Positions 16,748 to 64,000 of a stretch of DNA of 64,000 nt are shown here, piece after piece (position 1 is the first letter of the stretch; the number at the start of each line of letters is the position of its first letter). The DNA is from a virus (taxonomy: Duplodnaviria > Heunggongvirae > Uroviricota > Caudoviricetes). A program made the translations under genes and the position numbers. Where the stretch lies: the IMG/VR virus record IMGVR_UViG_2778261375_000003; one strand, given 5' to 3'. The notes under the pieces are model-generated. The model was not told the DNA's origin, did not search any database, and saw nothing but the letters and a program-made list of their open reading frames with translations.

Positions 16748-16750
16748 ACC

Positions 16751-17829: not shown

Positions 17830-18061
17830 ACAGAACGAAAAAGCTATCGCTCAAATTGCTGATTATATCCCGCGTGCGTGCCGGGGTATGCAGTTGCAGG
17901 AAGCCAAAGCGCGCCTGGAGAAAAAAATTGCGCTCTATATTGATGACGGCTGTGATTCCGCCGTTCTTAACGCGGCGTTCGCACCAGCTCTTAACTGTCA
18001 CACTCGGGAGTCTTTTTTTTCGTGCATCGCAGCGCAACTCCGCCAAGGAGGCAACCAGTGA
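17822..18061 (+). CDS. hypothetical small protein (79 aa) ending in ...AAQLRQGGNQ
   Basis: C-terminal motif and the AGGAGGCAACCAGTGAG junction are shared with the 18690-19352 gene. Confidence 0.45.
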   Translation: MFKQNEKAIAQIADYIPRACRGMQLQEAKARLEKKIALYIDDGCDSAVLNAAFAPALNCHTRESFFSCIAAQLRQGGNQ

Positions 18062-18702: not shown

Positions 18703-19352
18703 CAATTGACTATCAGGTACTGCGTGAGGCGGCAGAAAAGGCAACACCAGACGAATGGGTCGCATTTATTTCGACGGATACTGGTACTTATGCGGTGCAC
18801 ACGCCCGGTGATGAACGATGTGAAGACGTTATCAAATGGACCGGCTTTGATGGACAGAAAAATGCAGAGAACAACGCTCGTCATGTTGCCGCGTTCAACC
18901 CAAAGGTTGCACTGGAGCTGCTTGGTGAAATTAAGTGCTTGGAGGACACAAATATTGATGCCACGTGCCGAATTTCAGAGCTTGAGACTAATCTCGCTGC
19001 GCTGGTGGCAGAGAACGCTGGGCTGAAACACGCAATGGCCGTAACTCTTGAGCATGTGTCGGTCACGGATGCAGGGCAGGCCGGAGTTGCTGCAATGATT
19101 ATCAACGATGCCCTGCACCACAGCGAAACTCCAGCTACCGATGCTTTCCTGTCTGAAGTGCGGGCGCAGGGGGTGGATGCTGCTATAGAAGCTGCAAAAA
19201 ATCTGGTGGCCCAAGAATATGAGTATAAGGATTTCAAAGCGGCGCAGAGTGATTGCTGTATGCACCCTGGTTCAGACCTGGTAGGGAAGGTTGAAATGAC
19301 TGAGTGGTTAGTTGACTTTGCTGCCCAGCTTCGCAAAGGAGGCAACCAGTGA
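18690..19352 (+). CDS. ead/Ea22-like family protein (220 aa)
   Basis: N-terminal YQVLREAAEKATPDEW motif; C-terminus ...AAQLRKGGNQ. Confidence 0.5.
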   Translation: MARMTIDYQVLREAAEKATPDEWVAFISTDTGTYAVHTPGDERCEDVIKWTGFDGQKNAENNARHVAAFNPKVALELLGEIKCLEDTNIDATCRISELETNLAALVAENAGLKHAMAVTLEHVSVTDAGQAGVAAMIINDALHHSETPATDAFLSEVRAQGVDAAIEAAKNLVAQEYEYKDFKAAQSDCCMHPGSDLVGKVEMTEWLVDFAAQLRKGGNQ

Positions 19353-20101
19353 GCGAAATTAATTACCAGGCACTGCGTGAGGCGGCGGAACGTGCAATTC
19401 CAGCAATGGAACGCCTGTTAATGTTGCCAGCTGATGATGATTTGTTAAGTGAACAGGAACTTAAAGATTACGGTGTGGATATTGATGCGCTCAACGCCTT
19501 CAAATTTCTGACCGGACCAGAAACCGTGCTGGCGCTGCTGGATGAACGGGAAAGAAACCAGCAATACATAAAACGCCGCGATCAGGAGAACGAGGATATT
19601 GCGCTAACGGTAGGGAAGCTGAGAGTTGAGCTTGAGGAAGTAAAACAACACGCTGAAGAATTATCCGAAACCAAGGCTGTTCGTAACCAATGGCGGCCAG
19701 ATATTTGCCCAATAACCGGACGTGCATTTTTCATGTGGATTGAGCATCCAACATTGGGAAATGTGCCGACATATGGTGGCCCATTAGATAGTTACACCAT
19801 TCCAACAAAGGACGGTGACGGTGAGTTTTCATGTGAGCGTTACGATCATGATTTTGGCGGTTGGGTAGAAAGCGAATGTCTTGGGTTATATCTGATTGAT
19901 GATAGAGAACAATGCAGGGTCTACGAACTGGAGGAACGCGTTAAGGAACTGGATGCTCGGGAAATATCGCTCCCGGAACGTAGCAGCATGCTTCATCGAA
20001 CAGATTTTCACGATGATTACCAAACGGTAATGGCATACAAAGTTTCTGAAGTCATCGCTGCAATCCGCGCCGCAGGCATTCGCATCAAAGGAGGTGAGTA
20101 A
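19349..20101 (+). CDS. ead/Ea22-like family protein (250 aa)
   Basis: N-terminal YQALREAAERAIP and ETVLALLDERERN motifs; GTG start in the conserved junction. Confidence 0.5.
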   Translation: MSEINYQALREAAERAIPAMERLLMLPADDDLLSEQELKDYGVDIDALNAFKFLTGPETVLALLDERERNQQYIKRRDQENEDIALTVGKLRVELEEVKQHAEELSETKAVRNQWRPDICPITGRAFFMWIEHPTLGNVPTYGGPLDSYTIPTKDGDGEFSCERYDHDFGGWVESECLGLYLIDDREQCRVYELEERVKELDAREISLPERSSMLHRTDFHDDYQTVMAYKVSEVIAAIRAAGIRIKGGE

Positions 20102-20446
20102 TGCGTGTGGCATGTATCGGCTTGTTACCGTACCCGACTCGTTTTTGGGCTTCTGCGCTAATTGCAAAGCCGTATGTCCTGATGGCTGACAACATCATCC
20201 CGGCACCAAAGCGCCGCCATACCGGTATTGCAGCGGCACGACGAGCAGCAAAGAGACGCAGGAGAGCAAAGCGATGAAAAACCGTAAGGCAAAACGACTT
20301 TTTTTACAGCGACCTGTGCGTGTGGTGGAGCTGGTTATTAGCAACCATAAGATAGCGGTACTCCATCCATTTGGTCAGGTGGCTTTTGCCGCAAAGCGTA
20401 AGCCTACTGCGTCACAGAACAGGCGGAAGAAAGGGTACGCTGTAAG

Positions 20447-21139
20447 ATGAAAAACCGTAAAGCAAAGATTCTGTTAGTTCGTAGAAACGCTCCTGGCGTC
20501 TGGCAGTGGGTGAGACTCAGCAACCGACGGATGGGGTTGATGAAATATTACGGGATGATGGATTGTGGTTTTTGCAAAAAGCCCAGCGCGGCGCAAAACC
20601 GCTGGAAAAACCACTTGCGCACTAAAGGAGTAACACACCGCGAACTCTGTCAGATTGCGTATAAGTTCCTTAAGCGCAACGGGTTCAAGGTTTGTTTTCA
20701 TGACCGCTTTATAGCTGTAACCAGTACCGGAGAACAGCCAGATGCTATGGGATTCAGAAATTCAGCATCATGCCTGATAGAGGCGAAGTGTTCTCGTGCT
20801 GACTTGTTGGCAGATAGAAAAAAGCGTTTTCGTAAAAATCCATCTCTTGGAATGGGCGACTGGCGATTCTTTATTAGTGAGCCGGGAATTATTTCAGTTG
20901 AGGATTTACCACCTGGCTGGGGATTACTTCACGTTGTTAACGGAAGAGTACGGAAAGTACATGGGTGGCCCAAGGGTAATTGCTGTTGGGGTAATCCTGA
21001 CGATAAGCCATTTACTGGAAATAAGCAGGTTGAATGCGATTACATGTTATCTGCATTAAGGCGCATGGAGTTGAGAGGGCACCTTAATGAAATATATGAC
21101 GGTGTAATTGTTAATAAGAAAGAAGGAAACGCAGCATGA
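20447..21139 (+). CDS. hypothetical protein (230 aa)
   Basis: ORF with a duplicated 5' end: atgaaaaaccgtaaRgcaaa occurs at 20274 and 20447. Confidence 0.5.
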   Translation: MKNRKAKILLVRRNAPGVWQWVRLSNRRMGLMKYYGMMDCGFCKKPSAAQNRWKNHLRTKGVTHRELCQIAYKFLKRNGFKVCFHDRFIAVTSTGEQPDAMGFRNSASCLIEAKCSRADLLADRKKRFRKNPSLGMGDWRFFISEPGIISVEDLPPGWGLLHVVNGRVRKVHGWPKGNCCWGNPDDKPFTGNKQVECDYMLSALRRMELRGHLNEIYDGVIVNKKEGNAA

Positions 21140-21522
21140 TCACTATTACCAAAGAACGCCTGCTGACAATCCAGCAGTGGCGCGAAACATACGGACCTGG
21201 TAGCAACGTTGTACTGCCAGCAGAAGAAGCGGAAGAACTGGCACGAATTGCTCTGGCATCGCTGGAAGCAAAACCAATAGGTGCATTCCACATTGCAGAA
21301 CAGCAAGTTGACGGCACAAGTGACTACATCAAGGATGGGGAGTGGCCTATTGATAATGGAATTATTGAGGTCTACGCCGCTCCCCCCGTTCCAGTAGTAC
21401 CGGAAGAAAAACCAATGCCTAATCCTCTTAGCATGTACGCGGTTGATGCTGTTGCCGCTATTGCAGAGGTAAGAGGCTGGAATGCCTGCCGCGCGGCTAT
21501 GCTTCATGGGAAAGGAAAGTGA
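21136..21522 (+). CDS. hypothetical protein (128 aa), paralogue of the N-terminus of the 21955-23235 product
   Basis: shared motifs LARIALASLEA, VYAAPPVPVVP, AAMLHG. Confidence 0.5.
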   Translation: MITITKERLLTIQQWRETYGPGSNVVLPAEEAEELARIALASLEAKPIGAFHIAEQQVDGTSDYIKDGEWPIDNGIIEVYAAPPVPVVPEEKPMPNPLSMYAVDAVAAIAEVRGWNACRAAMLHGKGK

Positions 21523-21523
21523 T

Positions 21524-21745
21524 ATGGCTAACTCATTACTTGAAACCTGCAACAACTGGCAGATTCAGAGGGCGGAGATTTTATCTCGCAATCCAGATAT
21601 GGCAATGACAATTGATAATCTGGACACGCTAATTGAACGGACCGTGCGTTCTGCAATTGATATAGCACATCGAGTGGATTGGGATTTCAGAGAAGCGGAG
21701 CGGCTTGCTAAAGAGCAGGAGAAAGCAGCGGGTAAAGGAGACTGA
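21524..21745 (+). CDS. hypothetical protein (73 aa)
   Basis: internal ATG of track ORF 21482-21745 chosen as start. Confidence 0.4.
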   Translation: MANSLLETCNNWQIQRAEILSRNPDMAMTIDNLDTLIERTVRSAIDIAHRVDWDFREAERLAKEQEKAAGKGD

Positions 21746-21746
21746 T

Positions 21747-21944
21747 ATGGATAAAAACACCACTGCTTACTGGAATCTGTCACTTGATACCGAATGCCCA
21801 AAATGCGGTCACAATTTCGATCTGCTTTGTGATCCAGATTTCTGGGAATTTTCTGGAGCAAAACAGGCATGTGAAGAAATAAAAGGTTACGAAACATGCT
21901 GTCCAGAATGTAACCATGAATTTAAAACAGATTTTGTGTATTGA
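21747..21944 (+). CDS. zinc-ribbon protein (65 aa)
   Basis: CPKCGH...CCPECNH double CxxC motif. Confidence 0.45.
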   Translation: MDKNTTAYWNLSLDTECPKCGHNFDLLCDPDFWEFSGAKQACEEIKGYETCCPECNHEFKTDFVY

Positions 21945-21954
21945 GGCATAACGA

Positions 21955-23235
21955 ATGACCACTTTTACTAAAGAACAATTAATAGAGATGATTAAGCGCA
22001 ATATAACGGTTATGGATCGTTATCCTGATTTAGTAACTGCACAAATGGATCTGGAAGTATACAAAATTGCGCTGGCATCACTGGAAGCAGAACCAGTTGC
22101 TTATATTTTCAAACATCCGGCCGGGAAATTATTCTGGGCTTTAACGGATGAAAGCAATAAAGAGCAAGCGGACGTTATTCCTGTTTATGCTGCCGCGCCT
22201 GCGTCGGTTGTGCCGGATAATGCATCAGAGCCTCTTGCTTATGCTTACAAAGAGCTTACGCCTGAGATTATGCGCAACCATTTAGCTGTATTCGAGCGAT
22301 ATGGAATAGCCCCAAACGATAGCTCTACCACAATTCAGGCACTGCGAATCGCGCTGGATGGTATAGAGCGGAGCGACGCCATGCTTCAGTCCGGAAACTT
22401 TCGGGAAAACAAGAATTCGTCAACCAATAATTTTCGGGAAATCGCGGAAACGTCAACCAACTATCCGGTAATTCCTAGTGAGGTGTTGTCCGCAATCCTG
22501 AAGGTTGCCAAGATTCGTGCCGATTTCGATGATTTTGACGGTGACAGGCGAGGTATCGGTGATTGTCTGGATGAGGCTGAGCAAGAGCTTATCGTTACCA
22601 TTAACAAATATGCCAGTCAGTTGGCAGCAGAACCGATAGCGACTAATGACGTTCGAGAGCAAACAGCCGTTCCGCCAGTTCCTGTAATACAGGCTGATGT
22701 CGCGCAGGCAATTGAAAAACTCAAACGGAAATTAGTGGAATGCAATCGCTATAACTACTGCGCAGATGCAGTTAAGGGCGTTGAGTATGCCTGCCACGCT
22801 GCCATGCTTCAGGGTAGCCAACCTGTAAGCCAAACTTACAAGTTTCCAGTTAATACACCTTGCCAGGATGCGCCAGCCCATATCTGGCTGCAAACAGCTG
22901 GAGTATGGCCAGAAGATGGCGAGTTAAGCGAATTAACATGGTGCAGCCACAATCAGCACCATGATGACACGCTATATGTTCGAGCTGACTTGGTAAATGG
23001 CAATTCTCCGGTAACTCCGGATGGTTGGATAAGCTGTAGTGAGCGAATGCCGAATACCAAAACAGCCGTTCTTGTTGCCGTGGAGTTTGACAGGAAAGGT
23101 GACTGGCGAATGAAATGGGCTACTTACATCCCGGGGCATCCTGACGCTAATGATGGGTGGATAATTCCTGGTGCGTCGTGGAAACCGTCACACTGGATGC
23201 CGCTACCAGAACCGCCGCAGGAGGTGAATCAATGA
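21955..23235 (+). CDS. hypothetical protein (426 aa) with repeated paralogous domain
   Basis: contains YKIALASLEAEP, VYAAAPASVVP, AAMLQG motifs shared with the 21136 product. Confidence 0.55.
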   Translation: MTTFTKEQLIEMIKRNITVMDRYPDLVTAQMDLEVYKIALASLEAEPVAYIFKHPAGKLFWALTDESNKEQADVIPVYAAAPASVVPDNASEPLAYAYKELTPEIMRNHLAVFERYGIAPNDSSTTIQALRIALDGIERSDAMLQSGNFRENKNSSTNNFREIAETSTNYPVIPSEVLSAILKVAKIRADFDDFDGDRRGIGDCLDEAEQELIVTINKYASQLAAEPIATNDVREQTAVPPVPVIQADVAQAIEKLKRKLVECNRYNYCADAVKGVEYACHAAMLQGSQPVSQTYKFPVNTPCQDAPAHIWLQTAGVWPEDGELSELTWCSHNQHHDDTLYVRADLVNGNSPVTPDGWISCSERMPNTKTAVLVAVEFDRKGDWRMKWATYIPGHPDANDGWIIPGASWKPSHWMPLPEPPQEVNQ

Positions 23236-23299
23236 GCTGGCCTGAAGCATTCACCACGGTAGGAATTGTGATGGCGGCAGCACTGGGTTTGTATTCAAT

Positions 23300-23551
23300 T
23301 TGTCGCTGGTGGTAACGATGGGAAAAATAACTTTTGTAGTCGAATTTGAGGATGGTAAAGAGCCACCTGTTAGCGCCAATCTTGATGTTGCTGGTGGCAG
23401 GCTTGTTTCGGTTCTATTTGGTGACTACCGAGATGACTTCTTCCAACCAGAAGAAGTTGATGTAGTGCGAGAGGCATTAAACGAGTTAAGTGTTGATAAC
23501 GATGATGCTCATGCGGAAATCATCCAAAAAATGGAACTGCTAACTCACTAA
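23300..23551 (+). CDS. hypothetical small acidic protein (83 aa)
   Basis: ORF with upstream purine-rich tract. Confidence 0.45.
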   Translation: MSLVVTMGKITFVVEFEDGKEPPVSANLDVAGGRLVSVLFGDYRDDFFQPEEVDVVREALNELSVDNDDAHAEIIQKMELLTH

Positions 23552-23599
23552 ATTATCAATTATGGTGCTATCACCTACGACACCGAGAGAAAATTTATA

Positions 23600-23722
23600 A
23601 TGTCAAAAGTAAATGTTTTGATTTTTTCAGCAATTGTTGGCTTTGGTTTTACTGCCGGAGTGCAGATTTATATTACGTGGGAAAAAATCATCAACTACGC
23701 ATGGAGTTGTTTTATTAAGTGA
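23600..23722 (+). CDS. small hydrophobic peptide (40 aa)
   Basis: ATG at 23600 to TGA at 23720-23722, one predicted TM helix (MSKVNVLIFSAIVGFGFTAGVQIYITW...). Confidence 0.3.
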   Translation: MSKVNVLIFSAIVGFGFTAGVQIYITWEKIINYAWSCFIK

Positions 23723-23729
23723 GGTAAGT

Positions 23730-24023
23730 ATGTGGAGAGGTAATAGTCATGGCAAAAGCCAGATGATACTTACCGAATATAAGCTAGACCACAAAACCAA
23801 TAAATCACGTTCAGTATATTTGCTCCGGCACAATAGCCGCGTAAGAAATACCGTGCTGGAACAAAATCTGACAGTTGAAATGGATAATTACGGGGGATTC
23901 AAGCCAACAATTTCACTTGATGATTTTCCTCGTGGTTTAAGCGAAAGAGAAGCAATGCTGAAATTAGCAGAATGGCTACAAAGATTAAGCATTGCTATTG
24001 AAGATAACTGGTCTGAACCTTAA
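23730..24023 (+). CDS. hypothetical protein (97 aa)
   Basis: ATG at 23730 preceded by gaggtaag RBS-like sequence; track ORF 23634 probably over-extended. Confidence 0.45.
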   Translation: MWRGNSHGKSQMILTEYKLDHKTNKSRSVYLLRHNSRVRNTVLEQNLTVEMDNYGGFKPTISLDDFPRGLSEREAMLKLAEWLQRLSIAIEDNWSEP

Positions 24024-24029
24024 ATTTAT

Positions 24030-24404
24030 ATGATGACACTAAAACATTTTCTTGACCGCCCATTATGGGCGGCAGCCGCAGGCTATGACTTTAATTATAT
24101 GGATTGCATGTCTTATACCGCCAATGCATACGACTATTCCTTCAGTCTGCTGCTTAATTCTTTAAGAATATTGCCGCAAACAGAAGTTGGAGAGATTCAT
24201 TTATGGCTATTGGGCTTTATCGCGGCTGGAGTTGGTATTGCTGTATGGCCTTTTATTTTCTGGCTGGTGGCTGTTGTAGTGTGGTTTAAGTGCAAGACGT
24301 ACCGGAGAAAGTATTTCTTAGGTGATGGAATGACTGATATTGCCAAAATGAACATTGAAAAATGGACTAAGGAATGTGAAAAGAAATGGCGCAAAAAGAA
24401 ATGA
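24030..24404 (+). CDS. putative membrane protein (124 aa)
   Basis: hydrophobic segment LWLLGFIAAGVGIAVWPFIFWLVAVVVWF. Confidence 0.5.
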   Translation: MMTLKHFLDRPLWAAAAGYDFNYMDCMSYTANAYDYSFSLLLNSLRILPQTEVGEIHLWLLGFIAAGVGIAVWPFIFWLVAVVVWFKCKTYRRKYFLGDGMTDIAKMNIEKWTKECEKKWRKKK

Positions 24405-25036
24405 CCAGAATCACTGAAGAGCGTATATTAGAGATTATTTCCCGTATCGAAATGTATGGTCACGGTGCTGGATATACGGCAGATGAAGTATTGGAAATAG
24501 CCCAGCAGATGCTGGCCTTGAGACAAAAAGAGCAACATGAAAGTAATACGTGTAGATTGAATTTTGAGCAGTGGCTGGAACAGCAACGCGGAAAAATCGA
24601 TGTGGACTGCGGTTGTGTGTCCACTGAAACATTCATGCACTGGCTGTGGGTAGCTTACGAGGCTGGCAACTATCCGGATATTCCGGATAGTTCGGTGCCA
24701 GCGCCAGGAAAGGGCGTCACCGGTGAACGTATCCGCATTAAGCCGCATGTTTATCGCGAACTGGTTAACCGTCTCCACGATACAGCGATCAAGTGTGCTG
24801 GCACCCAGCAATTACGAGAAAGAATTAGCCGTGTTTTGGGCGACGTTATTACACCAGATCATCATAAACAAGCCGAGAAAAGTGACCTGGAAAGGTGTCA
24901 CCTTGAGGCGGCATTAAACATTAAGCCGGGGCATACGCTTGGCATTATTGATGCACTATTGGTTCATAAGATGGCCAGGGCTTTATTGCCGCTGGTGGCT
25001 GAAAAGCATGAGGTGGACCATGCCAACGAAAGCTGA
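24386..25036 (+). CDS. hypothetical protein (216 aa)
   Basis: ORF overlapping neighbour stop/start. Confidence 0.5.
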   Translation: MAQKEMTRITEERILEIISRIEMYGHGAGYTADEVLEIAQQMLALRQKEQHESNTCRLNFEQWLEQQRGKIDVDCGCVSTETFMHWLWVAYEAGNYPDIPDSSVPAPGKGVTGERIRIKPHVYRELVNRLHDTAIKCAGTQQLRERISRVLGDVITPDHHKQAEKSDLERCHLEAALNIKPGHTLGIIDALLVHKMARALLPLVAEKHEVDHANES

Positions 25037-25304
25037 ATTACAGGTGCGCGTAGATGAGCTTGAAAAAGAGAACGCGAGCCTCAAAAAAATGCTGTCGCGG
25101 GCGGAAAGGGAATTATCAGGCAAATTATTGCCAGAAGAACTGCCACCAGCAGATATACCTGATCGAGTGTCCTGGTGGATGAAGTATTTCCGTGCACCGT
25201 GGGAGGCGTTTTGGTGCTACGACCATCGCAGATGGTGTGATGAACTTGATAGCAATTTTCCCTACTTTGCGGAAGGGAACACCTGCCCTCAATGCAGGGG
25301 ATAG
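25020..25304 (+). CDS. hypothetical coiled-coil/zinc-ribbon protein (94 aa)
   Basis: internal ATG at 25020 chosen; ELQVRVDELEKENASLKK coiled coil and C-terminal CPQC. Confidence 0.4.
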   Translation: MPTKAELQVRVDELEKENASLKKMLSRAERELSGKLLPEELPPADIPDRVSWWMKYFRAPWEAFWCYDHRRWCDELDSNFPYFAEGNTCPQCRG

Positions 25305-25639
25305 CATTTGACGAAATCGATCACCCTATCCTGAACTTCAGAAAGAAGGTCTTTTTCACGCGCCAGGACGTCAGGATATTGACGTTCTGGCCTTACCAGA
25401 TGCCGGAGCTTCCCATTAAGCAGAATGGCCTCAGAAAACACTTTTACGCTGTGCTTTATCCCCTCTGTTTCACTTTTCAGCGTCAAAATAAAGCGCAATT
25501 GCTTATTAGCCTGATTCGGATTCAATACACGAATTTGCAGTTCGTCTATGCTGTTCCGCAATGGGATTGATGCCACCACACTGGTGCAGTCTCTGATTGT
25601 CTGAATTGAACGGCTAACATTGAGAACGTTATTGTGCAT
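25289..25639 (-). CDS. hypothetical protein (116 aa), only minus-strand ORF in this block
   Basis: non-overlapped ORF between two plus-strand genes; no motifs recognised. Confidence 0.35.
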   Translation of the reverse strand: MHNNVLNVSRSIQTIRDCTSVVASIPLRNSIDELQIRVLNPNQANKQLRFILTLKSETEGIKHSVKVFSEAILLNGKLRHLVRPERQYPDVLAREKDLLSEVQDRVIDFVKCYPLH

Positions 25640-25671
25640 GTGCCTGATCCACTAACTCCTGGAGGTTTCTT

Positions 25672-25923
25672 GTGTCAGATCGAAATATAGCAGCTAAAAG
25701 CCAGGAAGAGCGAGACAAGGTGAACGTAGACCTTGCCGCCAGCGGCGTTGCTTACAAAGAACGGCTGAATATACCTGTGATTGCAGAGCAGGTGGCCCGT
25801 GAGCAACCGGAAAACCTGCGCGCCTATTTCATGGAACGGCTACGGCACTACCGGCAGTTAAGCCTCCAGTTGCCAAAAGGGAGCGATCCGGTGTATCAGA
25901 ACGAGGATGCACCAAAAAAATAA
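25672..25923 (+). CDS. hot: homologue of DNA polymerase III theta subunit (Hot-like)
   Basis: 83 aa; [36 protein letters not shown] closely parallels the E. coli HolE core as recalled. Confidence 0.75.
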
Positions 25924-26008
25924 CGGCAAGATGGGGGAGAAATGTGATTAGCCCCCAGCGTGGCGCGCCTACAAACCCCGCTTTCACAAACTATGCCTTT
26001 TCAATGTA

Positions 26009-37736: not shown

Positions 37737-38405
37737 GTGGCTTTTCTTTTTTGTAGGGGCGCTATGGATAAGAAAATATGCGTTGTTTCGATGAGCGTCG
37801 GCAAACCGGCGTCAATGACTGCTGCATGGATCAATAACGAGCTGATAATGGCTGAGCGGACCAGCTACCCTGAACGCCGCCGCGACATGGAACTCCAGCT
37901 GCTGCGCGAATTGCGAGAAAAAGAGGAAAAGGGTTTTATCGTGCTGGTGGAAGAGGAAAACAGCTTTATTACTGGTCGAGTTGGCCAGCGTGTAAGGTTG
38001 CGCGATCCCTTCATGAACGGCAGGCCGGTACTAATTGAGGCAATGCAGATTTATAAGGAGCTGGAACGCCAGAAAGCAATCAAGTTACCGCGCAAGGAAT
38101 CCGGCAAATACATCCTCCACCAAAGCATCTTCGATTCCGAACACGATAAAAAAGGCGATGAATTTTTCAACATCAATTGGAGCGAAATAACGACAGAGCA
38201 TGTTCTGACGTTACTCTGTTGCTTTGCGACGGAATACAACAACGTTGCCAGCGCCGACTACATCAGGGCAATGGCTTGTGAAGTGGATAGTCGTGATGAC
38301 TCATCGCTGATAGCGTCATATATAAACATCATCAAGAAAACTCAAATTATGGGATGCGCTAGAGTTCCTCAAGGAATACTCACCGGAAAGAATAATATTC
38401 TATAA
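37737..38405 (+). CDS. mat: Mat-like protein (by position)
   Basis: ORF downstream of ref; the track start overlaps a hairpin with T-run, so the true start may be the ATG at 37764; name from P1 synteny. Confidence 0.5.
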   Translation: MAFLFCRGAMDKKICVVSMSVGKPASMTAAWINNELIMAERTSYPERRRDMELQLLRELREKEEKGFIVLVEEENSFITGRVGQRVRLRDPFMNGRPVLIEAMQIYKELERQKAIKLPRKESGKYILHQSIFDSEHDKKGDEFFNINWSEITTEHVLTLLCCFATEYNNVASADYIRAMACEVDSRDDSSLIASYINIIKKTQIMGCARVPQGILTGKNNIL

Positions 38406-38469
38406 CCTACGAAGGTTATTTGTTACTTTCTGCGTAAACCTACAACTAACCTTCCTAAGTTAAGGAAGG
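38404..38469. terminator. bidirectional terminator zone between convergent mat and the AT-rich gene
   Basis: hairpins aacctacgaaggtt and ccttcct-aagtta-aggaagg with T-rich flanks. Confidence 0.45.
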
Positions 38470-38502
38470 TATTTATCATGAAGTGTAGACATAAGCGTAT
38501 TA

Positions 38503-39543
38503 TTACATGGGCTTAACCACAACCTTTCCGTATATATCAAGTTTTGAATGTAATACGTTGACGTGAGACAATTCTTTATTCGAACTAACTTTATCTAAAA
38601 TTATATTTTTATCTTTTTCAGTCATGTTATACCCTAAGGTAATTTGCTTGAATGCAGAAAAAGGAATTTTCTTTAAGTTAATTTCATGATAGTCATGAAA
38701 AACATCAGGATACTCATTTAATAGGCAGTCATCAATCGATGGAGAGACAATGCTTCCTATTTTTCTCTCGCAATCAGCCAATGGAAAAATAATTCTACTT
38801 TCATTTTCAGGAAGCCACTCTTCACCTTTTGTATAAAGAAGCCTATTAATAAAAAGCTCGCGAACTGAATCTCGATTTAAGATCCCATGCAATGTATTAT
38901 CTTTATTCTTTATATCTATATTCCTCGATGGCGCAGGATAGCCATTAAATCGCACAGCGCCTTTATAATAGGTTACAGATGCTCTATCTTCTGGATTATA
39001 ACTAACATCACACGGCCGATATATTTTGAAAAAATCGTGTGTTTCATCGAAAACTACAGCAAACCCCTTTCCTATCGATGCATAATGAGTCCACATGTGT
39101 AGATTGCAATCACTTTTTGATAGAGAGAACACACCAAGATGACAGCTTACGGCTTCTACTAAATAATCGTTAAGGTACGTTACTATTTCTTGGAGTTTAG
39201 ATTCATCATATGAATCCATTGAGGTAAAACCTTCATTGATTAACAAGTGTGGAAAATCCTCTCCGTATCGTTTCCCGCAAGGTTTTAAATAATACTCTAA
39301 CTCTTGTATAGATGGGACATAAGATGGATCTCGTTGCATTTTCTTAAATTCATTTCTAGCCCATGCGTAATCGGCTGGTGAAAATTTATTAAAAAATGGA
39401 AGAAGTCGCGACTCACTCGACGGATCATTAAGATACTTTGGTTGCGTTGCTCTAAAGAAACCATCCTCCAGACAAGATGTTCTAATGTGCATGCCCGGCC
39501 AAGGTTTATCCATATAACTCTCGCCTATATATTTAACTAACAC
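38503..39543 (-). CDS. AT-rich 346-aa protein of unknown function at the R-M (res-mod) locus; candidate defence/accessory gene, possibly DUF2971-like
   Basis: single markedly AT-rich ORF between mat and lxc with terminators on both sides; motifs KY...LNDP and GVFSLS...MWTHYA...GFAVVFDE recall the DUF2971 pattern (from memory, unverified); GTG start. Confidence 0.7.
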   Translation of the reverse strand: MLVKYIGESYMDKPWPGMHIRTSCLEDGFFRATQPKYLNDPSSESRLLPFFNKFSPADYAWARNEFKKMQRDPSYVPSIQELEYYLKPCGKRYGEDFPHLLINEGFTSMDSYDESKLQEIVTYLNDYLVEAVSCHLGVFSLSKSDCNLHMWTHYASIGKGFAVVFDETHDFFKIYRPCDVSYNPEDRASVTYYKGAVRFNGYPAPSRNIDIKNKDNTLHGILNRDSVRELFINRLLYTKGEEWLPENESRIIFPLADCERKIGSIVSPSIDDCLLNEYPDVFHDYHEINLKKIPFSAFKQITLGYNMTEKDKNIILDKVSSNKELSHVNVLHSKLDIYGKVVVKPM

Positions 39544-39566
39544 TGTATGTCGATCCTGTTGTTTAA

Positions 39567-39584
39567 GCCCATATCATATGGGCT
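39567..39584. terminator. palindromic hairpin between lxc and the AT-rich gene
   Basis: gcccatat-c-atatgggc perfect palindrome. Confidence 0.35.
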
Positions 39585-39595
39585 TTAAATGATTA

Positions 39596-53473: not shown

Positions 53474-53785
53474 TTAATATACGATCTGGTCTACATGATC
53501 ACCAAAATCATCATCGTCGTCGTCATCATCGCCACCATCTACTGCTGGCCAATCAACAAACCAGCCAGCGTAAAGATGCAGCGTTCGGAGAACATCACTT
53601 GCGGGAGCATCAAGGGTGTTAACGAATCCCATATAGCTATTGGGATTTGCCCCAGCTATGGCTTCAGCGATCATGTCCTCGGTAATGTCACCGGAGATAA
53701 TGCTTAAACGCCCGGAAACTTCTTCATTATCATCAAATTCGATAATGGCATCTCCGCCTAATGGCGCTGCGATTTTAATCTGCAT
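53474..53785 (-). CDS. small highly acidic protein with poly-Asp tract (103 aa)
   Basis: C-terminal GGDDDDDDDDFGDH run; last gene of the leftward dar operon. Confidence 0.5.
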   Translation of the reverse strand: MQIKIAAPLGGDAIIEFDDNEEVSGRLSIISGDITEDMIAEAIAGANPNSYMGFVNTLDAPASDVLRTLHLYAGWFVDWPAVDGGDDDDDDDDFGDHVDQIVY

Positions 53786-55463
53786 TATTTAGATCCTTTG
53801 CCACACCTAATAACAGTTCCAGCAATCCGTCACCATTCATCAGTGATGCGGCAGCGGCCTCTTTGTCATGATACAACTGAAGAGCCATAGAGAATACTTC
53901 CGTTGCTGACGTTTTGGAAATAGTCGGTGATTTCTGCCGAATTTTCCCGGTGTTACTTACTGAGGCTGGCGGGTATACCTTCGCCATATAAATATTACTC
54001 AATCGAGATCTGAAGCACCATTCAGGCTTGCCACGCCCACCGATATTAACGAAAGATGGCTTATCCCCTTCAACATTGGCCTTCAGGAATGACCGGGCTT
54101 TCTCTAACAAACCAGGGTTACTGTACTCAAGATGATGACCCAGCTCGTGCCACAGTGCACTTGCATTTTCATCGTTCAAATTGACAGCAACAACACCATT
54201 AAGATTTGCATATGCCCTTCCCTGGTGGTGAACCACCTTTGATAAGGTCGAAATTTTACCGCCGGTCAGGCGATAAATATCAGCAAGTTCCTTGCGCAGG
54301 TCTATCCCACCATTCTGTCCAGCGCGGGCTTCTTCCACTTCTTCCGTGATAAAAGAGTCGGCCCACTCAAGAGCTTTTTCTTCAGATACGGATGAGTTTG
54401 CGATCGCACTGTTCATGGCAGATAACACTTTCTCGTGGACCGAACCCATTCTTCGCTGATTCATTTGCCAGCGTGTCTGCGGGTTATATGAGAATCGCTT
54501 AAGTAGTTGGTCAAGCTGCTCAAGTTCTTCTTCACTGACATACCTTTTAGCCTCACCAATAATGCCAGGGAGAATATTGCCGTTAGGATTAAACGCTCGC
54601 GAAAGGAAGAGTTTCAGCGCCCCCATGCCCTCCGATGCTTCAATATCACCAATAACCCGGTTAACAATGGCCGCACTCTTCGGATTAGCATCCGCCAACG
54701 CTCTGGCTACAATTTGCAGGGACGATACGACCTCACGCTGCATATCAGTCCTGATCTCATCAATAAACTCTGGCGTTATGCCGTGCTCTTTAAGGATATC
54801 CCTGCCTTCCGCCGTTACCCCATCGATATCACCGACATGTTTATTAACCCGACTTTGCAATGCCTTAAATGCCTTCAGAATTCCACGGGCATCATCCGCT
54901 TTAATAACGGCCTTCCTGAATGCTGGCAAGAAGTCTGAGTTAACCTCATTTTGTTGATCGGCCCACTGAATGGAGGCTTCTTTCATCTCGTCCAGAGTCA
55001 GATCACCCAACGCGGTATGGTCTGTGAATATGAGCGACAACCTCTGAACCATTTCTGCCAATGGTGATGCCGAATGCGCCGCGCTAAGGAATGCTTTCAC
55101 CCTGGTTGGGCGAATGGAAAACCAGTCAATAGCTGGTGGCATATCTCCGTTTTTTATCGCCTGCGCTATCTCGTCAAAGCCATCGCGCCCAAGGGAGGAT
55201 GCGTGATTTAACAAGCCGCGAAGTAACGAATTGCTGATACCGAATAATCGGCACCATTTATTCACGTCGGCAACAGGCATTCGAACAAAATGCGCAAGCA
55301 CTTGTACAAGCTGTTCATCCTGGGGATCTGTTCGGGAAAGCAGCCTGATCAGATGAATAATGTCTTTGATGCCGGATGCCCGATGTAATAGCAAGCTGGT
55401 ATATGGCGCAACACCGTTGTATCCGCTGCTGGTGGCCATAACTATCTGATCGTTTAAACTCAT
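53775..55463 (-). CDS. hypothetical protein (562 aa) in the darA operon (DdrB position)
   Basis: ORF overlapping its neighbours in a co-directional operon downstream of darA. Confidence 0.55.
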   Translation of the reverse strand: MSLNDQIVMATSSGYNGVAPYTSLLLHRASGIKDIIHLIRLLSRTDPQDEQLVQVLAHFVRMPVADVNKWCRLFGISNSLLRGLLNHASSLGRDGFDEIAQAIKNGDMPPAIDWFSIRPTRVKAFLSAAHSASPLAEMVQRLSLIFTDHTALGDLTLDEMKEASIQWADQQNEVNSDFLPAFRKAVIKADDARGILKAFKALQSRVNKHVGDIDGVTAEGRDILKEHGITPEFIDEIRTDMQREVVSSLQIVARALADANPKSAAIVNRVIGDIEASEGMGALKLFLSRAFNPNGNILPGIIGEAKRYVSEEELEQLDQLLKRFSYNPQTRWQMNQRRMGSVHEKVLSAMNSAIANSSVSEEKALEWADSFITEEVEEARAGQNGGIDLRKELADIYRLTGGKISTLSKVVHHQGRAYANLNGVVAVNLNDENASALWHELGHHLEYSNPGLLEKARSFLKANVEGDKPSFVNIGGRGKPEWCFRSRLSNIYMAKVYPPASVSNTGKIRQKSPTISKTSATEVFSMALQLYHDKEAAAASLMNGDGLLELLLGVAKDLNNAD

Positions 55464-59593: not shown

Positions 59594-60154
59594 ATGCTAA
59601 TAGGCTATGTACGCGTATCAACAAATGAACAAAACACTGCTTTACAACGAAATGCCCTTGAAAGCGCAGGATGTGAGCTAATTTTTGAGGATAAGGCGAG
59701 CGGCAAAAAGGCTGAACGCCCTGGGCTAAGAAAGGTTTTGCGTATGCTTTCCAGAGGTGACACCCTGGTCGTATGGAAGTTAGATCGTCTTGGGCGCAGC
59801 ATGCGTCACTTGGTTGTGCTGGTGGAGGAGCTGCGTGACAGAGGAATTAACTTCCGGAGTCTCACTGACTCCATCGACACCAGTACACCAATGGGGCGCT
59901 TTTTCTTTCACGTAATGGGGGCGCTGGCAGAAATGGAACGTGAGCTTACCGTTGAACGTACACGCGCTGGACTTGATGCAGCTCGCGCAGAAGGTCGAAT
60001 AGGAGGCCGTCGGCCTAAATACCAAGAAGAAACATGGCAGCAAATGCGTCGATTGCTGGAGAATGGCATCCCCCGTAAGCAGGTTGCAATCATCTATGAT
60101 GTTGCTGTTTCCACGCTTTATAAAAAGTTTCCTGCGTCATCATTTCAATCCTAA
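59594..60154 (+). CDS. cin: serine DNA invertase (Cin-like)
   Basis: 186 aa; MLIGYVRVSTNEQ with catalytic Ser motif, C-terminal HTH; 3' end overlaps the crossover site. Confidence 0.9.
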   Translation: MLIGYVRVSTNEQNTALQRNALESAGCELIFEDKASGKKAERPGLRKVLRMLSRGDTLVVWKLDRLGRSMRHLVVLVEELRDRGINFRSLTDSIDTSTPMGRFFFHVMGALAEMERELTVERTRAGLDAARAEGRIGGRRPKYQEETWQQMRRLLENGIPRKQVAIIYDVAVSTLYKKFPASSFQS

Positions 60155-60172
60155 ACCTTGGTTTGGGAGAAG
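60145..60172. other. cix-like crossover site (left)
   Basis: ttcaatcctaaaccttggtttgggagaa with imperfect dyad around AAACC-TT-GGTTT; inverted copy at 61968-61994. Confidence 0.7.
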
Positions 60173-60594
60173 GTTCGGCATTACCCGTTGGTGTGCCTGT
60201 CCCGTGGCCTTCCGCCACTCCGCCAACAGGCTGGCTAAAATGCAATGGTGCGGCTTTTTCTGCTGAAGAATACCCGGAACTGGCAAAGGTTTATCCGACA
60301 AATAAATTGCCTGATTTACGCGGTGAATTTATTCGTGGATGGGATGATGGGCGTGGGGTGGATTCCTCTCGTGGTTTGTTGACATCTCAAGACCATTTAT
60401 TTGCTTCTCATGGGCACTGGTTTGACAAGTACTATGCGCTAACAGGTTTTGATACAACGGGAGGTCGGTTCGTAGTTACGGCTGATGCTTTCGGGGAACT
60501 TATTAAGGCAAATTCAATTTCTACGGTATCGGTTGGTGGTTCTGAAACCCGGCCGCGCAACGTCGCATTTAACTATATCGTGAGGGCAGCCTGA
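60163..60594 (+). CDS. tail-fibre variable C-terminal part (Sv'-like), silent in this orientation
   Basis: frame opens at the crossover site with ...LGEGSALPVGVPVPWP...GWLKCNG..FS..EYPELA, typical fibre C-terminal segment; no constant part upstream. Confidence 0.65.
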   Translation: MGEGSALPVGVPVPWPSATPPTGWLKCNGAAFSAEEYPELAKVYPTNKLPDLRGEFIRGWDDGRGVDSSRGLLTSQDHLFASHGHWFDKYYALTGFDTTGGRFVVTADAFGELIKANSISTVSVGGSETRPRNVAFNYIVRAA

Positions 60595-61196
60595 TGAATA
60601 AAGCCGTATTAAATAACGAACTCATTGCCATAAAAGCGGGAGACATTACCATTTATAATTATGATGGTGAAACGCGGGAATATATTTCCACATCAACTGA
60701 ATATCTTGCGGTTGGCGTCGGTATACCGGCATGCTCCTGTTTAGATGCTCCTGACTCATATAAAGCTGGTTATGCAATCTGCCGTTCTGCAGATTTTAAC
60801 TCATGGGTATATGTGCCAGACCACCGTGGTGAAACGGTATATAGCACTGAAACAGGAGAATCAAAAGAAATCACAGCTCCGGGTGATTACCCTGAAAATA
60901 CAACCACTATCGCCCCGTTAACGCCATTCGATAAATGGGATGGTGAGAAATGGGTGACCGATACTGAGGCACAGCATTGCGCCGCAGTAGACGCGGCAGA
61001 AGCACAGCGTCAGTCACTGATTGATACTGCAATGGCTTCCATCAGTCTGATTCAACTGAAATTGCAGGCCGGGCGGAAGCTGACGCAGGCAGAAACCACC
61101 CGACTTAACGCTGTGCTGGATTACATTGACGCGGTGACGGCAACAGATACCAGCACCGCGCCGGATGTCATCTGGCCTGAACTGCCGGAGGCGTAG
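60594..61196 (+). CDS. tail-fibre assembly protein (U'-like)
   Basis: 200-aa ORF following Sv' with overlapping stop/start. Confidence 0.6.
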   Translation: MNKAVLNNELIAIKAGDITIYNYDGETREYISTSTEYLAVGVGIPACSCLDAPDSYKAGYAICRSADFNSWVYVPDHRGETVYSTETGESKEITAPGDYPENTTTIAPLTPFDKWDGEKWVTDTEAQHCAAVDAAEAQRQSLIDTAMASISLIQLKLQAGRKLTQAETTRLNAVLDYIDAVTATDTSTAPDVIWPELPEA

Positions 61197-61608
61197 GCCA
61201 TTCAATATCTGGCGCACCGGAAGTATCGACCAGTTCCAGTGCGTCCAGGTAATCCAGCCACAAATTATATTGCGCCAGTTCGTCACCTTTCAGACGACCA
61301 ATAGCCGCTTTACCAGGCCATTGTTTACTGTTCATATAATCGTTGGCCTGATTAATCAATTGCTGCTTCTCCAATTCGGCTGCAGCAATTTGTTCCTCAT
61401 GTGTTGGTGGTGGAATTTCGGACCATGCAGGAAAACCATTTTCTCCAGCGATACGGATTTTTCCTTTCGGCGGTAATCCGGAAAACTCAATATACACTTG
61501 CTCATCAACTTCAACAGCATCATCTGGCCATGAGTCAGCTTGAGTGTAATCCTCTTTCATCCCCAGCGGATAGAAAGAGTTTGTAGTCGCGGAATATATG
61601 TAATTCAT
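61168..61608 (-). CDS. tail-fibre assembly protein (U-like)
   Basis: 146-aa ORF convergent with U', downstream of Sv on the minus strand. Confidence 0.6.
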   Translation of the reverse strand: MNYIYSATTNSFYPLGMKEDYTQADSWPDDAVEVDEQVYIEFSGLPPKGKIRIAGENGFPAWSEIPPPTHEEQIAAAELEKQQLINQANDYMNSKQWPGKAAIGRLKGDELAQYNLWLDYLDALELVDTSGAPDIEWPTPPAVQAR

Positions 61609-61629
61609 TTTTCACTCCATATAGCTAAA

Positions 61630-62022
61630 TTAACAGCCTAACGCTAAAAATGAAGCGCCGAGGCCAGGAGTACTGGCTCTGGATATAAATTTAACCGGGT
61701 CGGGACTAAAACCTGCACAGGCAATATAACCAACAGCCCCGCTATCTGGTGTGTAGTCTTGTGAGACCAAAACACGCAGACATCTGTTTGGAAATGCAAT
61801 CGGGAAATGGGTTACTACATCCTGTGCAATGCCTGGTGCGCCGATTGAGCCCCACTGAAGAATAAAACCTGATGGTAATTTTTGATATCCAGTACCTGAA
61901 ACAGAAAGCGTGAAGCTACCCATATCAGGTATCTGATTCGCCCCTGTCCCTACATTCCTTTTAGCCGCTTCTCCCAAACCAACGTTTATGAAAATGCAGA
62001 AATAACGAGCAGATGGCATCAT
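61630..62022 (-). CDS. tail-fibre variable C-terminal part (Sv-like), lacking an upstream constant part
   Basis: frame crosses the right crossover site (...[11 protein letters not shown]...), but no long in-frame ORF continues upstream; a Pin-like gene lies there instead. Confidence 0.6.
61968..61994. other. cix-like crossover site (right, inverted)
   Basis: cttctcccaaaccaacgtttatgaaaa is the reverse complement of the left-site core with a few mismatches. Confidence 0.7.
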
Positions 62023-62048
62023 TCCTGCTTTTGTCAGGGAGATCTACC

Positions 62049-62603
62049 ATGCTTATTGGCTATGTACGTGTGTCAACAAATGACCAGAACACAGATCTAC
62101 AACGTAATGCGCTGAACTGTGCAGGATGCGAGCTGATTTTTGAAGACAAGATAAGCGGTACAAAGTCCGAAAGGCCGGGACTGAAAAAACTGCTCAGGAC
62201 ATTATCGGCAGGTGACACTCTGGTTGTCTGGAAGCTGGATCGGCTGGGGCGTAGTATGCGGCATCTGGTCATTCTGGTTGAGGAGTTGCGCGAACGTGGC
62301 GTTAATTTTCGCAGCCTGACGGATGCTATTGATACCAGCACACCGATGGGGCGTTTTTTCTTTCATGTGATGGGGGCCCTGGCTGAAATGGAACGAGAAC
62401 TGATTGTTGAACGAACAAAAGCTGGACTGGAAGCTGCTCGCGCACAGGGACGAATTGGTGGACGTCGTCCCAAACTTACGCCAGAACAATGGGCACAGGC
62501 CGGACGATTAATTACATCAGGAGTTCCTCGCCAGAAGGTGGCGATCATCTATGATGTTGGCGTATCGACTTTGTATAAGAAGTTTCCGGTCGGAGATAAA
62601 TGA
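62049..62603 (+). CDS. second serine DNA invertase (Pin-like)
   Basis: MLIGYVRVSTNDQNTDLQRNAL..., closely related to but distinct from the Cin copy at 59594; resembles the e14 Pin family as recalled. Confidence 0.85.
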   Translation: MLIGYVRVSTNDQNTDLQRNALNCAGCELIFEDKISGTKSERPGLKKLLRTLSAGDTLVVWKLDRLGRSMRHLVILVEELRERGVNFRSLTDAIDTSTPMGRFFFHVMGALAEMERELIVERTKAGLEAARAQGRIGGRRPKLTPEQWAQAGRLITSGVPRQKVAIIYDVGVSTLYKKFPVGDK

Positions 62604-63067
62604 AACCGCAGCACGTCGTATGCAAGAACGTGCCACGGCTGGCTGATGGACGTTCGATAGCGCGAGTTTGAATGAAAATCAGCCGGAGATGATTTTACAT
62701 AATTGCTACGGAATTATTCAATACAGGGATTGCTTGTGTCTGCATGGATTGACCTGAAATAGTCCCGAAAATTTCTCTAAAAAACTCGAAAAAAATGGTA
62801 ACTAATTGAATGTATTAATATGCAATGGTACGTGTTTGGGATTAAAAGATGAACGTGATTTTGTTTAACACATTAATTTTAAATGATTTTCTTGTTTGTT
62901 GACGAAAACAGGAATCGTGTTCGGTCTCTTTTTATCTGTTAAAAGCCAGAAGCATTCCCTTCGCTGACTTTATAGTCAACCATAACACACACTCTACTGT
63001 CTGAGTCCAGCGTTTTTTAACATTCTTGTTAAGATTATGTGATCTTTAGCGCGGGAGGAAAATATTG

Positions 63068-63724
63068 ATGAAACAGCCTGCGCCCGTTTATCAGAGAATT
63101 GCGGGTCATCAATGGCGACATATCTGGCTTTCTGGCGATATACACGGTTGTCTTGAGCAGTTGCGCCGCAAATTATGGCATTGTCGTTTTGATCCGTGGC
63201 GAGATTTACTTATCTCAGTGGGAGACGTTATCGATCGTGGGCCGCAAAGTTTACGTTGTCTGCAGTTACTGGAACAACATTGGGTTCGTGCGGTAAGAGG
63301 CAATCATGAACAGATGGCGATGGATGCGCTGGCATCTCAGCAGATGTCTTTGTGGTTGATGAATGGCGGCGACTGGTTTATTGCGCTGGCAGATAATCAA
63401 CAGAAACAAGCGAAAACGGCGCTGGAAAAATGTCAGCATTTGCCCTTTATTCTTGAAGTACACAGTCGTACCGGCAAACATGTTATTGCTCATGCCGATT
63501 ATCCAGATGATGTTTATGAATGGCAAAAGGACGTTGATTTGCATCAGGTCTTGTGGAGCCGCTCGCGATTAGGTGAACGCCAAAAAGGGCAGGGAATTAC
63601 AGGTGCTGATTATTTCTGGTTTGGTCATACACCGTTGCGACATCGCGTGGATATTGGCAACCTGCATTATATTGATACCGGTGCTGTCTTTGGGGGCGAA
63701 CTGACTCTTGTGCAATTGCAATAA
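63068..63724 (+). CDS. Ser/Thr protein phosphatase, lambda-PPase family (PrpA/PphA-like)
   Basis: GDIHG, GDVIDRG, GNHE motifs; sequence strongly recalls enterobacterial chromosomal PrpA; second PPase-family gene in the window. Confidence 0.8.
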   Translation: MKQPAPVYQRIAGHQWRHIWLSGDIHGCLEQLRRKLWHCRFDPWRDLLISVGDVIDRGPQSLRCLQLLEQHWVRAVRGNHEQMAMDALASQQMSLWLMNGGDWFIALADNQQKQAKTALEKCQHLPFILEVHSRTGKHVIAHADYPDDVYEWQKDVDLHQVLWSRSRLGERQKGQGITGADYFWFGHTPLRHRVDIGNLHYIDTGAVFGGELTLVQLQ

Positions 63725-64000
63725 TTAAAAATCACCGTACTCCTGTGCAGGTCGCCAGAAACCATCTATAAAATCCTCAATCGGAAAACAACCGCCATGG
63801 CGGATCCGTTGATCGCTCATAGAATAAAGACACTGCTGTTCCGTGTTGTAGACATCCACAACAATATCTTCACAACCGCCATCCAGGTAGCAAACAAAAA
63901 GTACCAGCGCGAACATTTCATCCCCGAAGTGTGGTGCCGTACCGTTAAGTTTAGGAGAGATTTTACAACGGGGGAATAACCAGGACAAATAACCCGCCAT
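63725..64000 (-). CDS. 3' part of an unidentified ORF truncated by the window end
   Basis: open frame running off the right edge. Confidence 0.3.
   Translation of the reverse strand: MAGYLSWLFPRCKISPKLNGTAPHFGDEMFALVLFVCYLDGGCEDIVVDVYNTEQQCLYSMSDQRIRHGGCFPIEDFIDGFWRPAQEYGDF

Follow-up and report, generated by a model that had tools for sequence, protein, structure and literature searches.

A prophage tail-fibre cassette in place of the P1 C segment: probable exchange between invertase crossover sites in Escherichia coli

The viral genome record IMGVR_UViG_2778261375_000003, a 64,000-nucleotide stretch of DNA referred to here as the window, belongs for most of its length to a P1-like phage-plasmid. 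At positions 59594-64000, the DNA invertase gene cin of this element meets an invertible tail-fibre cassette, which is followed by a second invertase gene, pin, and by the Escherichia coli chromosome. Very probably, the C segment of the P1-like element has been replaced by the invertible cassette of a resident prophage through site-specific exchange, and the unit seen in the window is the join between P1 and the chromosome at a duplicated cassette. Rather than being a self-contained system, the region is a seam, and it forms the right-hand join of the contig to which the window belongs.

Two copies of one cassette

The window is identical to positions 164,156-228,155 of contig NOEJ01000003.1 (assembly GCA_002517405.1; 271,099 bp), and an exact-protein search finds the cassette's fibre assembly protein, U, encoded twice on this contig. 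Specifically, the cassette block at window 60153-61982 recurs 95,441 bp upstream with 0 differences (blastn against locus L005, 9560-11392); the first mismatch, at window 61983, lies just outside the right crossover core. To the left of the upstream copy stand the prophage tail module and a 257-amino-acid (aa) fibre composed of a prophage constant part and the variable tip (Sc_pro-Sv). To its right stands the 644-aa P1 fibre S (Sc_P1-Sv'), followed by P1 R, gp16, bplA, pmgA and sit, with P1 homology beginning exactly at cixR. The order along the contig is chromosome, Sc_pro, cassette, Sc_P1, P1 backbone (93.6 kb), cin, cassette, pin, pphA.

Invertible fibre switches are defined by a constant 5' fibre part (Sc) that reads into the segment. 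This feature occurs twice at the upstream copy, where simulated inversion leaves all of the Sc/Sv fusions in frame (4/4; 257, 229, 644 and 672 aa), and is absent at the window copy. There, the Sv frame is closed upstream by a stop 13 codons away, within the cin 3' end, and Sv' starts in the pin-proximal spacer. A preliminary description of the region, made from its letters alone, reported that no constant part adjoins either end of the cassette; open reading frames (ORFs) bear this out for the window copy. The constant parts are nevertheless not lost: 95.4 kb further upstream, the contig has two Sc genes at the identical second cassette. The search for Sc in the rest of the replicon that this description proposed leads, on this contig, to the upstream copy. 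Sc is absent from the window copy because that copy forms the recombinant end of a cassette duplication; degeneration is not the cause.

A near-isogenic relative supplies the control for this arrangement. The same P1-like element is present in the sibling assembly GCA_002517425.1, from the same submission batch, as the plasmid-sized contig NOEL01000020.1 (98,274 bp). NOEL01000020.1 and window 11955-57082 are 100.000% identical, with 0 mismatches, and over 48 kb up to the cixL core a single base, window 59949 in cin codon 119, distinguishes the two elements. The C segment behind cin in NOEL01000020.1 is canonical for P1 (Sv' of 504 aa, U' of 177 aa, U of 175 aa, a long Sv and the usual inverted repeat). 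Identity between the two stops in cixL, and the NOEL C segment diverges from the cassette immediately inside the site. Since its near-isogenic relative has a canonical C segment, the NOEJ P1 element appears to have lost its C segment and gained the cassette very recently. A common P1 protein, used as a query, found nothing but unrelated plasmids and added nothing to the NOEJ/NOEL comparison.

Reads from the same strain contain the joint as well. The Logan assembly of run SRR5336230 is the only other place in the collection that holds both the exact Cin and the exact U protein. It assembles the 1,830-bp block as a separate contig, and its contig SRR5336230_18 reads from cin through the left, hybrid site; the junction k-mers are thus independently present. 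Only two contigs of the whole collection encode exactly this Cin, and this strain is the source of both; neither the hybrid S protein nor this Cin variant is on any other assembly of the collection. A literature search on NOEJ, GCA_002517405 and SRR5336230 gave no match.

The features of the region, from ORF calls and Pfam and NCBIfam profiles, are as follows; sites, ORFs and domains carry the coordinates of the 64-kb window.

1-60157: P1-like phage-plasmid part, ~60 kb, with the dmt end, ban, pac, c1, cre/lox, darB, prt/pro, the darA operon, lydABC and cin; terminates at the cixL core
59594-60154, plus strand: cin, serine DNA invertase of 186 aa; Pfam Resolvase (PF00239) and HTH_7 (PF02796)
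60146-60171, plus strand: left crossover site, s3; CAATCCTAAACC TT GGTTTGGGAGAA, core TT at 60158-60159
60153-61982: repeated cassette block, 1,830 bp, bounded at the crossover sites; identical to the upstream copy
60163-60594, plus strand: Sv, fibre tip with a Collar domain (Pfam PF07484); ORF with no constant part at the window copy
60594-61196, plus strand: U, tail-fibre assembly chaperone of 200 aa (Pfam Caudo_TAP); annotated tfaE in E. coli CS6L
61168-61608, minus strand: U', alternative tail-fibre assembly chaperone of 146 aa (Pfam Caudo_TAP)
61630-62022, minus strand: Sv', tip with a gp53-like C domain (Pfam PF21882); ORF with its ATG start outside the cassette and no constant part at the window copy
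61969-61994, minus strand: right crossover site, s4; TTCTCCCAAACC AA CGTTTATGAAAA, core AA at 61981-61982
62049-62603, plus strand: pin (pinE-type), serine DNA invertase of 184 aa belonging to the resident prophage; Pfam PF00239 and PF02796; 82% aa identity to Cin
62604-63064: AT-rich spacer between pin and pphA, GC 0.33-0.37; equal spacing in CS6L
63065-63724, plus strand: pphA (prpA), chromosomal Ser/Thr phosphatase; NCBIfam equivalog PRK11439, 441 bits against a cut-off of 326; context yebW-yebV-rsmF-yebT-yebS
63725-64000, minus strand: yebW (Pfam DUF1482), annotated as such in CS6L and other genomes

Much of the local anatomy had been recognized in the preliminary description. The segment is indeed enclosed by two inverted cix-like sites, refined here to 26-bp sites at 60146-60171 and 61969-61994, and carries two opposed Sv/U-type pairs, Sv/U on the plus strand and U'/Sv' on the minus strand, with Collar, Caudo_TAP and gp53-like_C domains. 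The second, Pin-like invertase to the right is pin (62049-62603, plus strand; 82% identical to Cin), and the AT-rich spacer (33-37% GC at ~62600-63050) leads to the predicted chromosomal-looking PrpA-like phosphatase, pphA, and then to yebW. Homology on both sides agrees that the left flank is P1-like and the right flank Pin-type and chromosomal.

On the P1 side, the window is collinear with phage JL22, from 68794 to 99605 and, via the record start (cra, cre), from 1 to 26396. P1 collinearity runs to window 60171, and positions 40000-60171 are 98-99% identical to JL22, P7 and P1. Gene order is that of a Punavirus: collinear with P1/P7, with the darA operon, lydABC and a cin that ends in cixL. 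The C segment of about 4.2-4.5 kb with 0.6-kb inverted repeats that belongs to this genus is missing, and the 1.83-kb prophage cassette stands instead. In JL22 and every P1-like element examined, cin is directed at the C segment and ends in cixL. The abutment of the cin 3' end on the left site, which the preliminary description took for an anomaly, is therefore the canonical P1 layout, as in the JL22 annotation and equally in NOEL and locus L019.

The P1-like part has further peculiarities of its own. The ddrB gene (window 53775-55463) encodes 562 aa here and in NOEL versus 995 aa in JL22 and L019; ~1.3 kb is missing at a breakpoint near 55421-55427, and the residual frame is open. Two stretches are mosaic relative to JL22 and identical in NOEL: window 16074-25999, with Ea22-like, DUF551 and PAPS-reductase-like genes, and window 38275-39595, with a 346-aa DUF2971-like gene.

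Crossover sites, invertases and the prophage home of the cassette

The four crossover sites at the two cassette copies read as follows.

s1, upstream copy, left: CTCGAAAACC TT GGTTTGGGAGAAGG; outer half prophage
s2, upstream copy, right: CTTCTCCCAAACC AA GGTATTGGATAA; outer half P1 cixR
s3, window copy, left: CAATCCTAAACC TT GGTTTGGGAGAAGG; outer half P1 cixL
s4, window copy, right: CTTCTCCCAAACC AA CGTTTATGAAAA; outer half prophage

As in other invertase systems, the 26-bp sites consist of two 12-bp half-sites around a 2-bp core and bound the segment in inverted orientation. The 64 kb contain exactly two occurrences of the 15-nucleotide (nt) inner arm plus core (TTGGTTTGGGAGAAG), inverted relative to each other; shuffled sequences predict 0.08 matches to it, and none of 100 shuffles gave 2 or more. 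Alignment with JL22 cixL, CS6L and the upstream-copy sites shows that s2 and s3 join P1 outer halves to cassette inner halves, and s4 is identical to the pin-side site of CS6L and of loci L009, L012, L013 and L017. The switch from P1 to cassette is confined to 12 bp on the left (s3) and 7 bp on the right (s2), each interval containing the 2-bp core. Thus, the joints have the marks of site-specific exchange: they lie at the crossover centre, carry recombinant halves and are flanked by no long parental homology.

Comparison with JL22 and CS6L suggested that the left site is a hybrid made at the window copy itself. That interpretation was dropped: the second cassette copy, together with plasmid P2 of GZ2408P, shows that the inner half-site travels with the cassette, and the comparison that decides is the one with the near-isogenic NOEL P1.

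Both flanking genes encode members of the serine invertase family, which is marked by an N-terminal resolvase catalytic domain with a nucleophilic Ser, by helix E and by a C-terminal helix-turn-helix within about 185-195 aa, and both proteins contain the motif YVRVS(9)T. Over residues 1-182, Cin matches Gin (PDB 3UJ3) with E = 1.5e-87. At the 5' ends of their coding sequences, where the Fis-bound enhancer lies in this family, cin and pin are conserved (76% at the nucleotide level). An NCBIfam scan assigned no specific family to either invertase or to the fibre parts. The invertases Gin, Cin, Pin and Hin complement one another. Cin and Pin are 82% identical, and the P1 and prophage sites share the centre AAACC-TT-GGTTT.

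The base at window 59949 that separates this cin from that of NOEL changes Ile119 of Cin to Thr. The residue lies in helix E and is Ile in Pin, Gin and gamma-delta resolvase. One idea was that Cin I119T is an enhancer-independent mutant of relaxed specificity that drove an intermolecular reaction. This idea is unsupported: at the equivalent position of Hin, I120C (in the H107Y background) cleaves poorly, forms no synaptic complex and is nearly inactive (PMC2724282, Table 1). By this analogy, I119T more likely weakens Cin than activates it, making the protein a presumptive hypomorph, and a tie between the substitution and the rearrangement is unproven.

From 60153 on, the window matches E. coli chromosomes. 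In CS6L and several other assemblies, a tail/baseplate module is followed by the tail fibre (Sc+Sv), tfaE, tfa, Sv', pinE and then pphA-yebW-yebV-rsmF, and the exact Pin protein adjoins the cassette and pphA in many E. coli assemblies. Aligning the right flank, a check that the preliminary description recommended, thus confirms its chromosomal nature, and the resident element proves not to be e14, with which that description had compared it: the layout is as in e14, the tail module is that of a different prophage, and the element adjoins pphA. Both orientations of the cassette exist among E. coli genomes, at exactly the window's sites. For this reason, the cassette at its chromosomal home is best read as a functioning switch of the Mu G or e14 P type. 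Among the E. coli contexts compared, cin on the cassette's left is found in NOEJ only, and a search of complete E. coli genomes and PLSDB plasmids returned no cin-cassette junction covering at least 80% of the query.

Contig ends in the Logan assembly carry a hint about the cassette beside cin. The contig with cin breaks off at 60172, where the stretch shared by the two orientations ends. A simple merge with k = 31 would have carried it on to 60182, and joining of cin to a C segment would have stopped it at 60164. The end point is thus a hint that cin is followed by either orientation in the reads of SRR5336230, so that the cin-adjacent copy inverts in culture, and also that these reads contain no cin/C-segment junction.

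Unusual arrangements are seen in two further records. In contig UDGX01000003.1, three prophage-type sites lie at 180, 2050 and 3571, and an inverted copy of the Sc/wedge/baseplate module follows pin; this could stem from a large inversion by Pin, from a second prophage or from an assembly effect. The EC02 chromosome (L039, 8714-11617) carries the same prophage family near dacD, with Sc truncated at the site. After the truncated Sc come a sequence with ~90% similarity to the beginning of a P1 C-type Sv and then a 762-aa fibre, with no invertase annotated. EC02 was considered as the reciprocal product of the exchange, in which a P1 C segment would follow the prophage Sc, and rejected: it is the only full-length match, and it is 90% identical, at another locus and without an invertase.

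Exchange route and physical state

The proposed route starts from two normal layouts. In the P1-like element, cin points toward cixL, the C segment follows, and Sc_P1 reads in from beyond cixR. In the prophage, the tail module leads to Sc_pro, then to the cassette, with Sv and U facing U' and Sv', and then to pin and pphA. The notion is that conservative serine-invertase recombination between the P1 cix sites and the homologous prophage sites swapped the C segment for the prophage cassette exactly at both crossover dinucleotides, by way of inter-replicon fusion and then a second exchange or resolution. Because the recombination would be conservative and both cassette copies are of the prophage type, a second chromosomal copy must have taken part; a sister chromosome or a sibling cell could have supplied or retained that cassette. 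Fusion with resolution at the other site pair, followed by segregation or reinfection, would yield a free P1 element with a captured cassette. Fusion with exchange between the cointegrate and the sister chromosome would instead yield a lasting cointegrate. We infer that Cin or Pin was the agent and that the events followed such an order. Kennedy et al. 1983 (Mol Gen Genet 189:413) reportedly obtained Cin-mediated genome fusion at cix sites in the laboratory, and Iida et al. 1984 are said to have described quasi-cix recombination and intermolecular fusion by Cin, again in the laboratory.

Several points weigh against capture by this route and against the join as drawn. Wild-type invertases strongly disfavour intermolecular and deletion reactions and are efficient only on inverted sites in cis (PMC4513852, introduction), so the exchange needs two rare events. 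Complete genomes yielded no reciprocal product, the prophage Sc with a C segment of P1 behind it. The evidence that P1 and chromosome are contiguous is a contig path that uses a perfect 1.83-kb repeat twice. Moreover, the NOEJ/NOEL batch resembles the output of short-read de Bruijn assembly, with contig numbers apparently sorted by length. The last base of NOEL01000020.1 lies 3 nt beyond the cixR core, where the inverted repeat of the C segment has its outer end, a typical short-read graph break, and the Logan assembly of SRR5336230 is broken at repeats, the cassette ends included.

Capture of the cassette leaves two physical states to consider, and because a free plasmid beside a normal chromosome and a cointegrate have identical junction k-mers, sequence alone cannot choose between them. 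We give the free plasmid roughly an even chance and the cointegrate a chance somewhat below even, with the remainder falling on other readings. In the former state, a unit-copy plasmid with the order cin, cassette, Sc_P1 coexists with a normal chromosome with the order Sc_pro, cassette, pin, pphA, and the assembler's path has drawn P1 as inserted. The artefact would be a loop whose repeat edge has two entries and two exits, traversed once with the plasmid at chromosome-like coverage. In loop resolution by SPAdes, a unit-copy plasmid that shares a two-copy repeat with the chromosome would form a simple loop and be traversed once, and the deposited contig equals this minimal traversal. The perfect repeat, 1.83 kb long, exceeds ordinary paired-end inserts, and the signs of short-read graph assembly fit as well. 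Moreover, P1 darA-cin sequences in complete E. coli genomes lie on plasmids at 546 of 558 places, and P1-family plasmids with an equal cassette layout exist, such as P2 of GZ2408P. If the plasmid is free, the arrangement of two invertases and no constant part may be absent as a physical molecule. On the other side, nothing in the sequence contradicts integration, k-mer content is the same in both states, and for a free P1 to hold the captured cassette without loss of the chromosomal one, a transient cointegrate is still required, and after it segregation or reinfection.

A true cointegrate would hold the P1-like genome in the chromosome between two direct cassette copies. It could have arisen by two invertase exchanges involving a sister chromosome, or by RecA acting between identical cassettes after capture. 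Its left cassette would serve two converging fibre genes, and its right one would be an orphan between two invertases. The contig as deposited has exactly this form, and capture itself requires at least a transient cointegrate. The reported laboratory fusion of genomes by Cin at cix is a precedent, and the remaining 12 of the 558 darA-cin places are chromosomal, so an integrated P1 is tolerated. Such places are nonetheless rare (~2%), and contiguity here depends on the contig path. Two chromosomal P1-like elements, in PK-F-10122 and ST2747, were inspected as possible precedents and rejected, since their junctions are not at cix. Separately, the 2.17-Mb contig CASDNU010000023.1 has P1 genes beside a purU-like gene. 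A bolder form of the cointegrate is doubtful: a natural fusion of P1 and chromosome by invertase cross-talk, with one cassette serving the fibre genes of two phages, the second an orphan, and Cin I119T selected with the event. If it were true, each inversion would swap tips between the fibre genes of two unrelated phages, and I119T would alter recombination control or silence Cin afterwards.

Explanations that do without site-specific exchange fare far worse. Homologous recombination by RecA, through similarity between C segment and cassette, is very unlikely to have made the P1/cassette joints. Some P1-family plasmids (H68-H70 and H93) share ~200 bp of the Sv 5' part with the cassette, so such an exchange is conceivable in other lineages, and RecA is a likely route for integration or excision of a cassette once captured. 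The C segment of the NOEL parent, however, diverges from the cassette at once inside the site, and both joints fall on the crossover centre. With no more than 7-12 bp in common between the parents at the joints, a RecA-dependent origin is not credible here. Among the recombination options that the preliminary description listed, homologous exchange accordingly falls away, and an invertase-mediated or integration junction and an assembly path through the shared repeat are among those that persist. Its further option of a degenerate cassette fits the local appearance only, as does a chimeric misjoin of unrelated contigs through short cix similarity, and we regard a stand-alone orphan cassette or such a misjoin as extremely improbable. 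The cassette ORFs are all intact and identical to those of the Sc-fused copy, the 12-bp common core is far below any assembler k-mer, and the cin-cassette junction k-mers are also in Logan contig SRR5336230_18.

Relation to known switches and implications

Capture of the prophage cassette by the P1-like element gives a structure that combines features of several known systems. As in the C segment and cin of P1, P7 and JL22, cin encodes 186 aa and has its stop codon inside cixL. Its s3 and s2 have cixL and cixR as outer halves, the far side carries S, R, 16 and bplA, and the backbone is 98-99% identical to P1, P7 and JL22. Unlike P1, the element lacks the C segment of 4.5 kb, with its 0.6-kb inverted repeats and its long Sv and Sv' (~500 aa). 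It has instead a foreign cassette of 1.83 kb with short tips (~130-143 aa), and the far side of the window copy is pin and chromosome, not Sc. The cassette itself resembles the e14 P segment (stfP-tfaP / tfaE-stfE-pinE) and Mu G with gin, in which Sc leads into Sv and U opposed to U' and Sv' and the 5' end of the invertase gene abuts the right site. As with e14 and Mu, both orientations occur in nature, and Pin, 82% identical to Cin, is close to Gin. Unlike e14, which lies at icd, the resident element adjoins pphA and has another tail/baseplate module, and unlike either e14 or Mu, its Sc side is replaced in the window by P1 cin.

A close counterpart is plasmid P2 of GZ2408P (NZ_JBYCWU010000003.1, 6845-10946), in which cin is followed by Sv (156 aa), U (200 aa), U' (146 aa) and Sv' and then by S (671 aa, with a gp53-like tip), at the same hybrid-type sites. 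Its cassette is 79-95% identical to the one described here, its backbone is more diverged, and it is a closed plasmid. Because P2 is a complete plasmid with this layout, P1 with a short cassette is viable as a plasmid. Sequences similar to the 5' parts of the P2 cassette also occur in H69, H70 and H93-H95.

The inter-replicon P1 cointegrates with hybrid sites reported from the Cin genome-fusion and quasi-cix work resemble the intermediate or product predicted here. Those were laboratory-selected plasmids, whereas the present case is a natural isolate, its partner is a prophage cassette, and a cassette has been replaced. The Min system of p15B reshuffles fibre modules through several crossover sites with one invertase family, within one replicon, and recombinase-mediated cassette exchange is an engineering method that employs integrases or tyrosine recombinases. 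The present case likewise reshuffles or exchanges fibre modules via several sites and, unlike Min, involves two replicons. Phages have reportedly long been supposed to trade mosaic fibre cassettes (Sandmeier 1994, on Mu, P1, e14 and p15B). Thus, invertase cross-reactivity, genome fusion and mosaic fibre cassettes are known already, and the new element is a natural instance resolved to the base pair, with an isogenic control.

The case also cautions readers of assemblies. Short-read assembly can make a unit-copy plasmid look integrated if it has one repeat in common with the chromosome, and an apparent orphan switch between two invertases can be a by-product of such a path. For phage biology, two P1 elements that are identical over at least 45 kb, one with the canonical C segment and the other with the exact cassette of its host's prophage, amount to a trade with an internal control. 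They support invertase cross-reactivity as a way for phage-plasmids to change host range, and P1 may also enter the chromosome through the same reaction.

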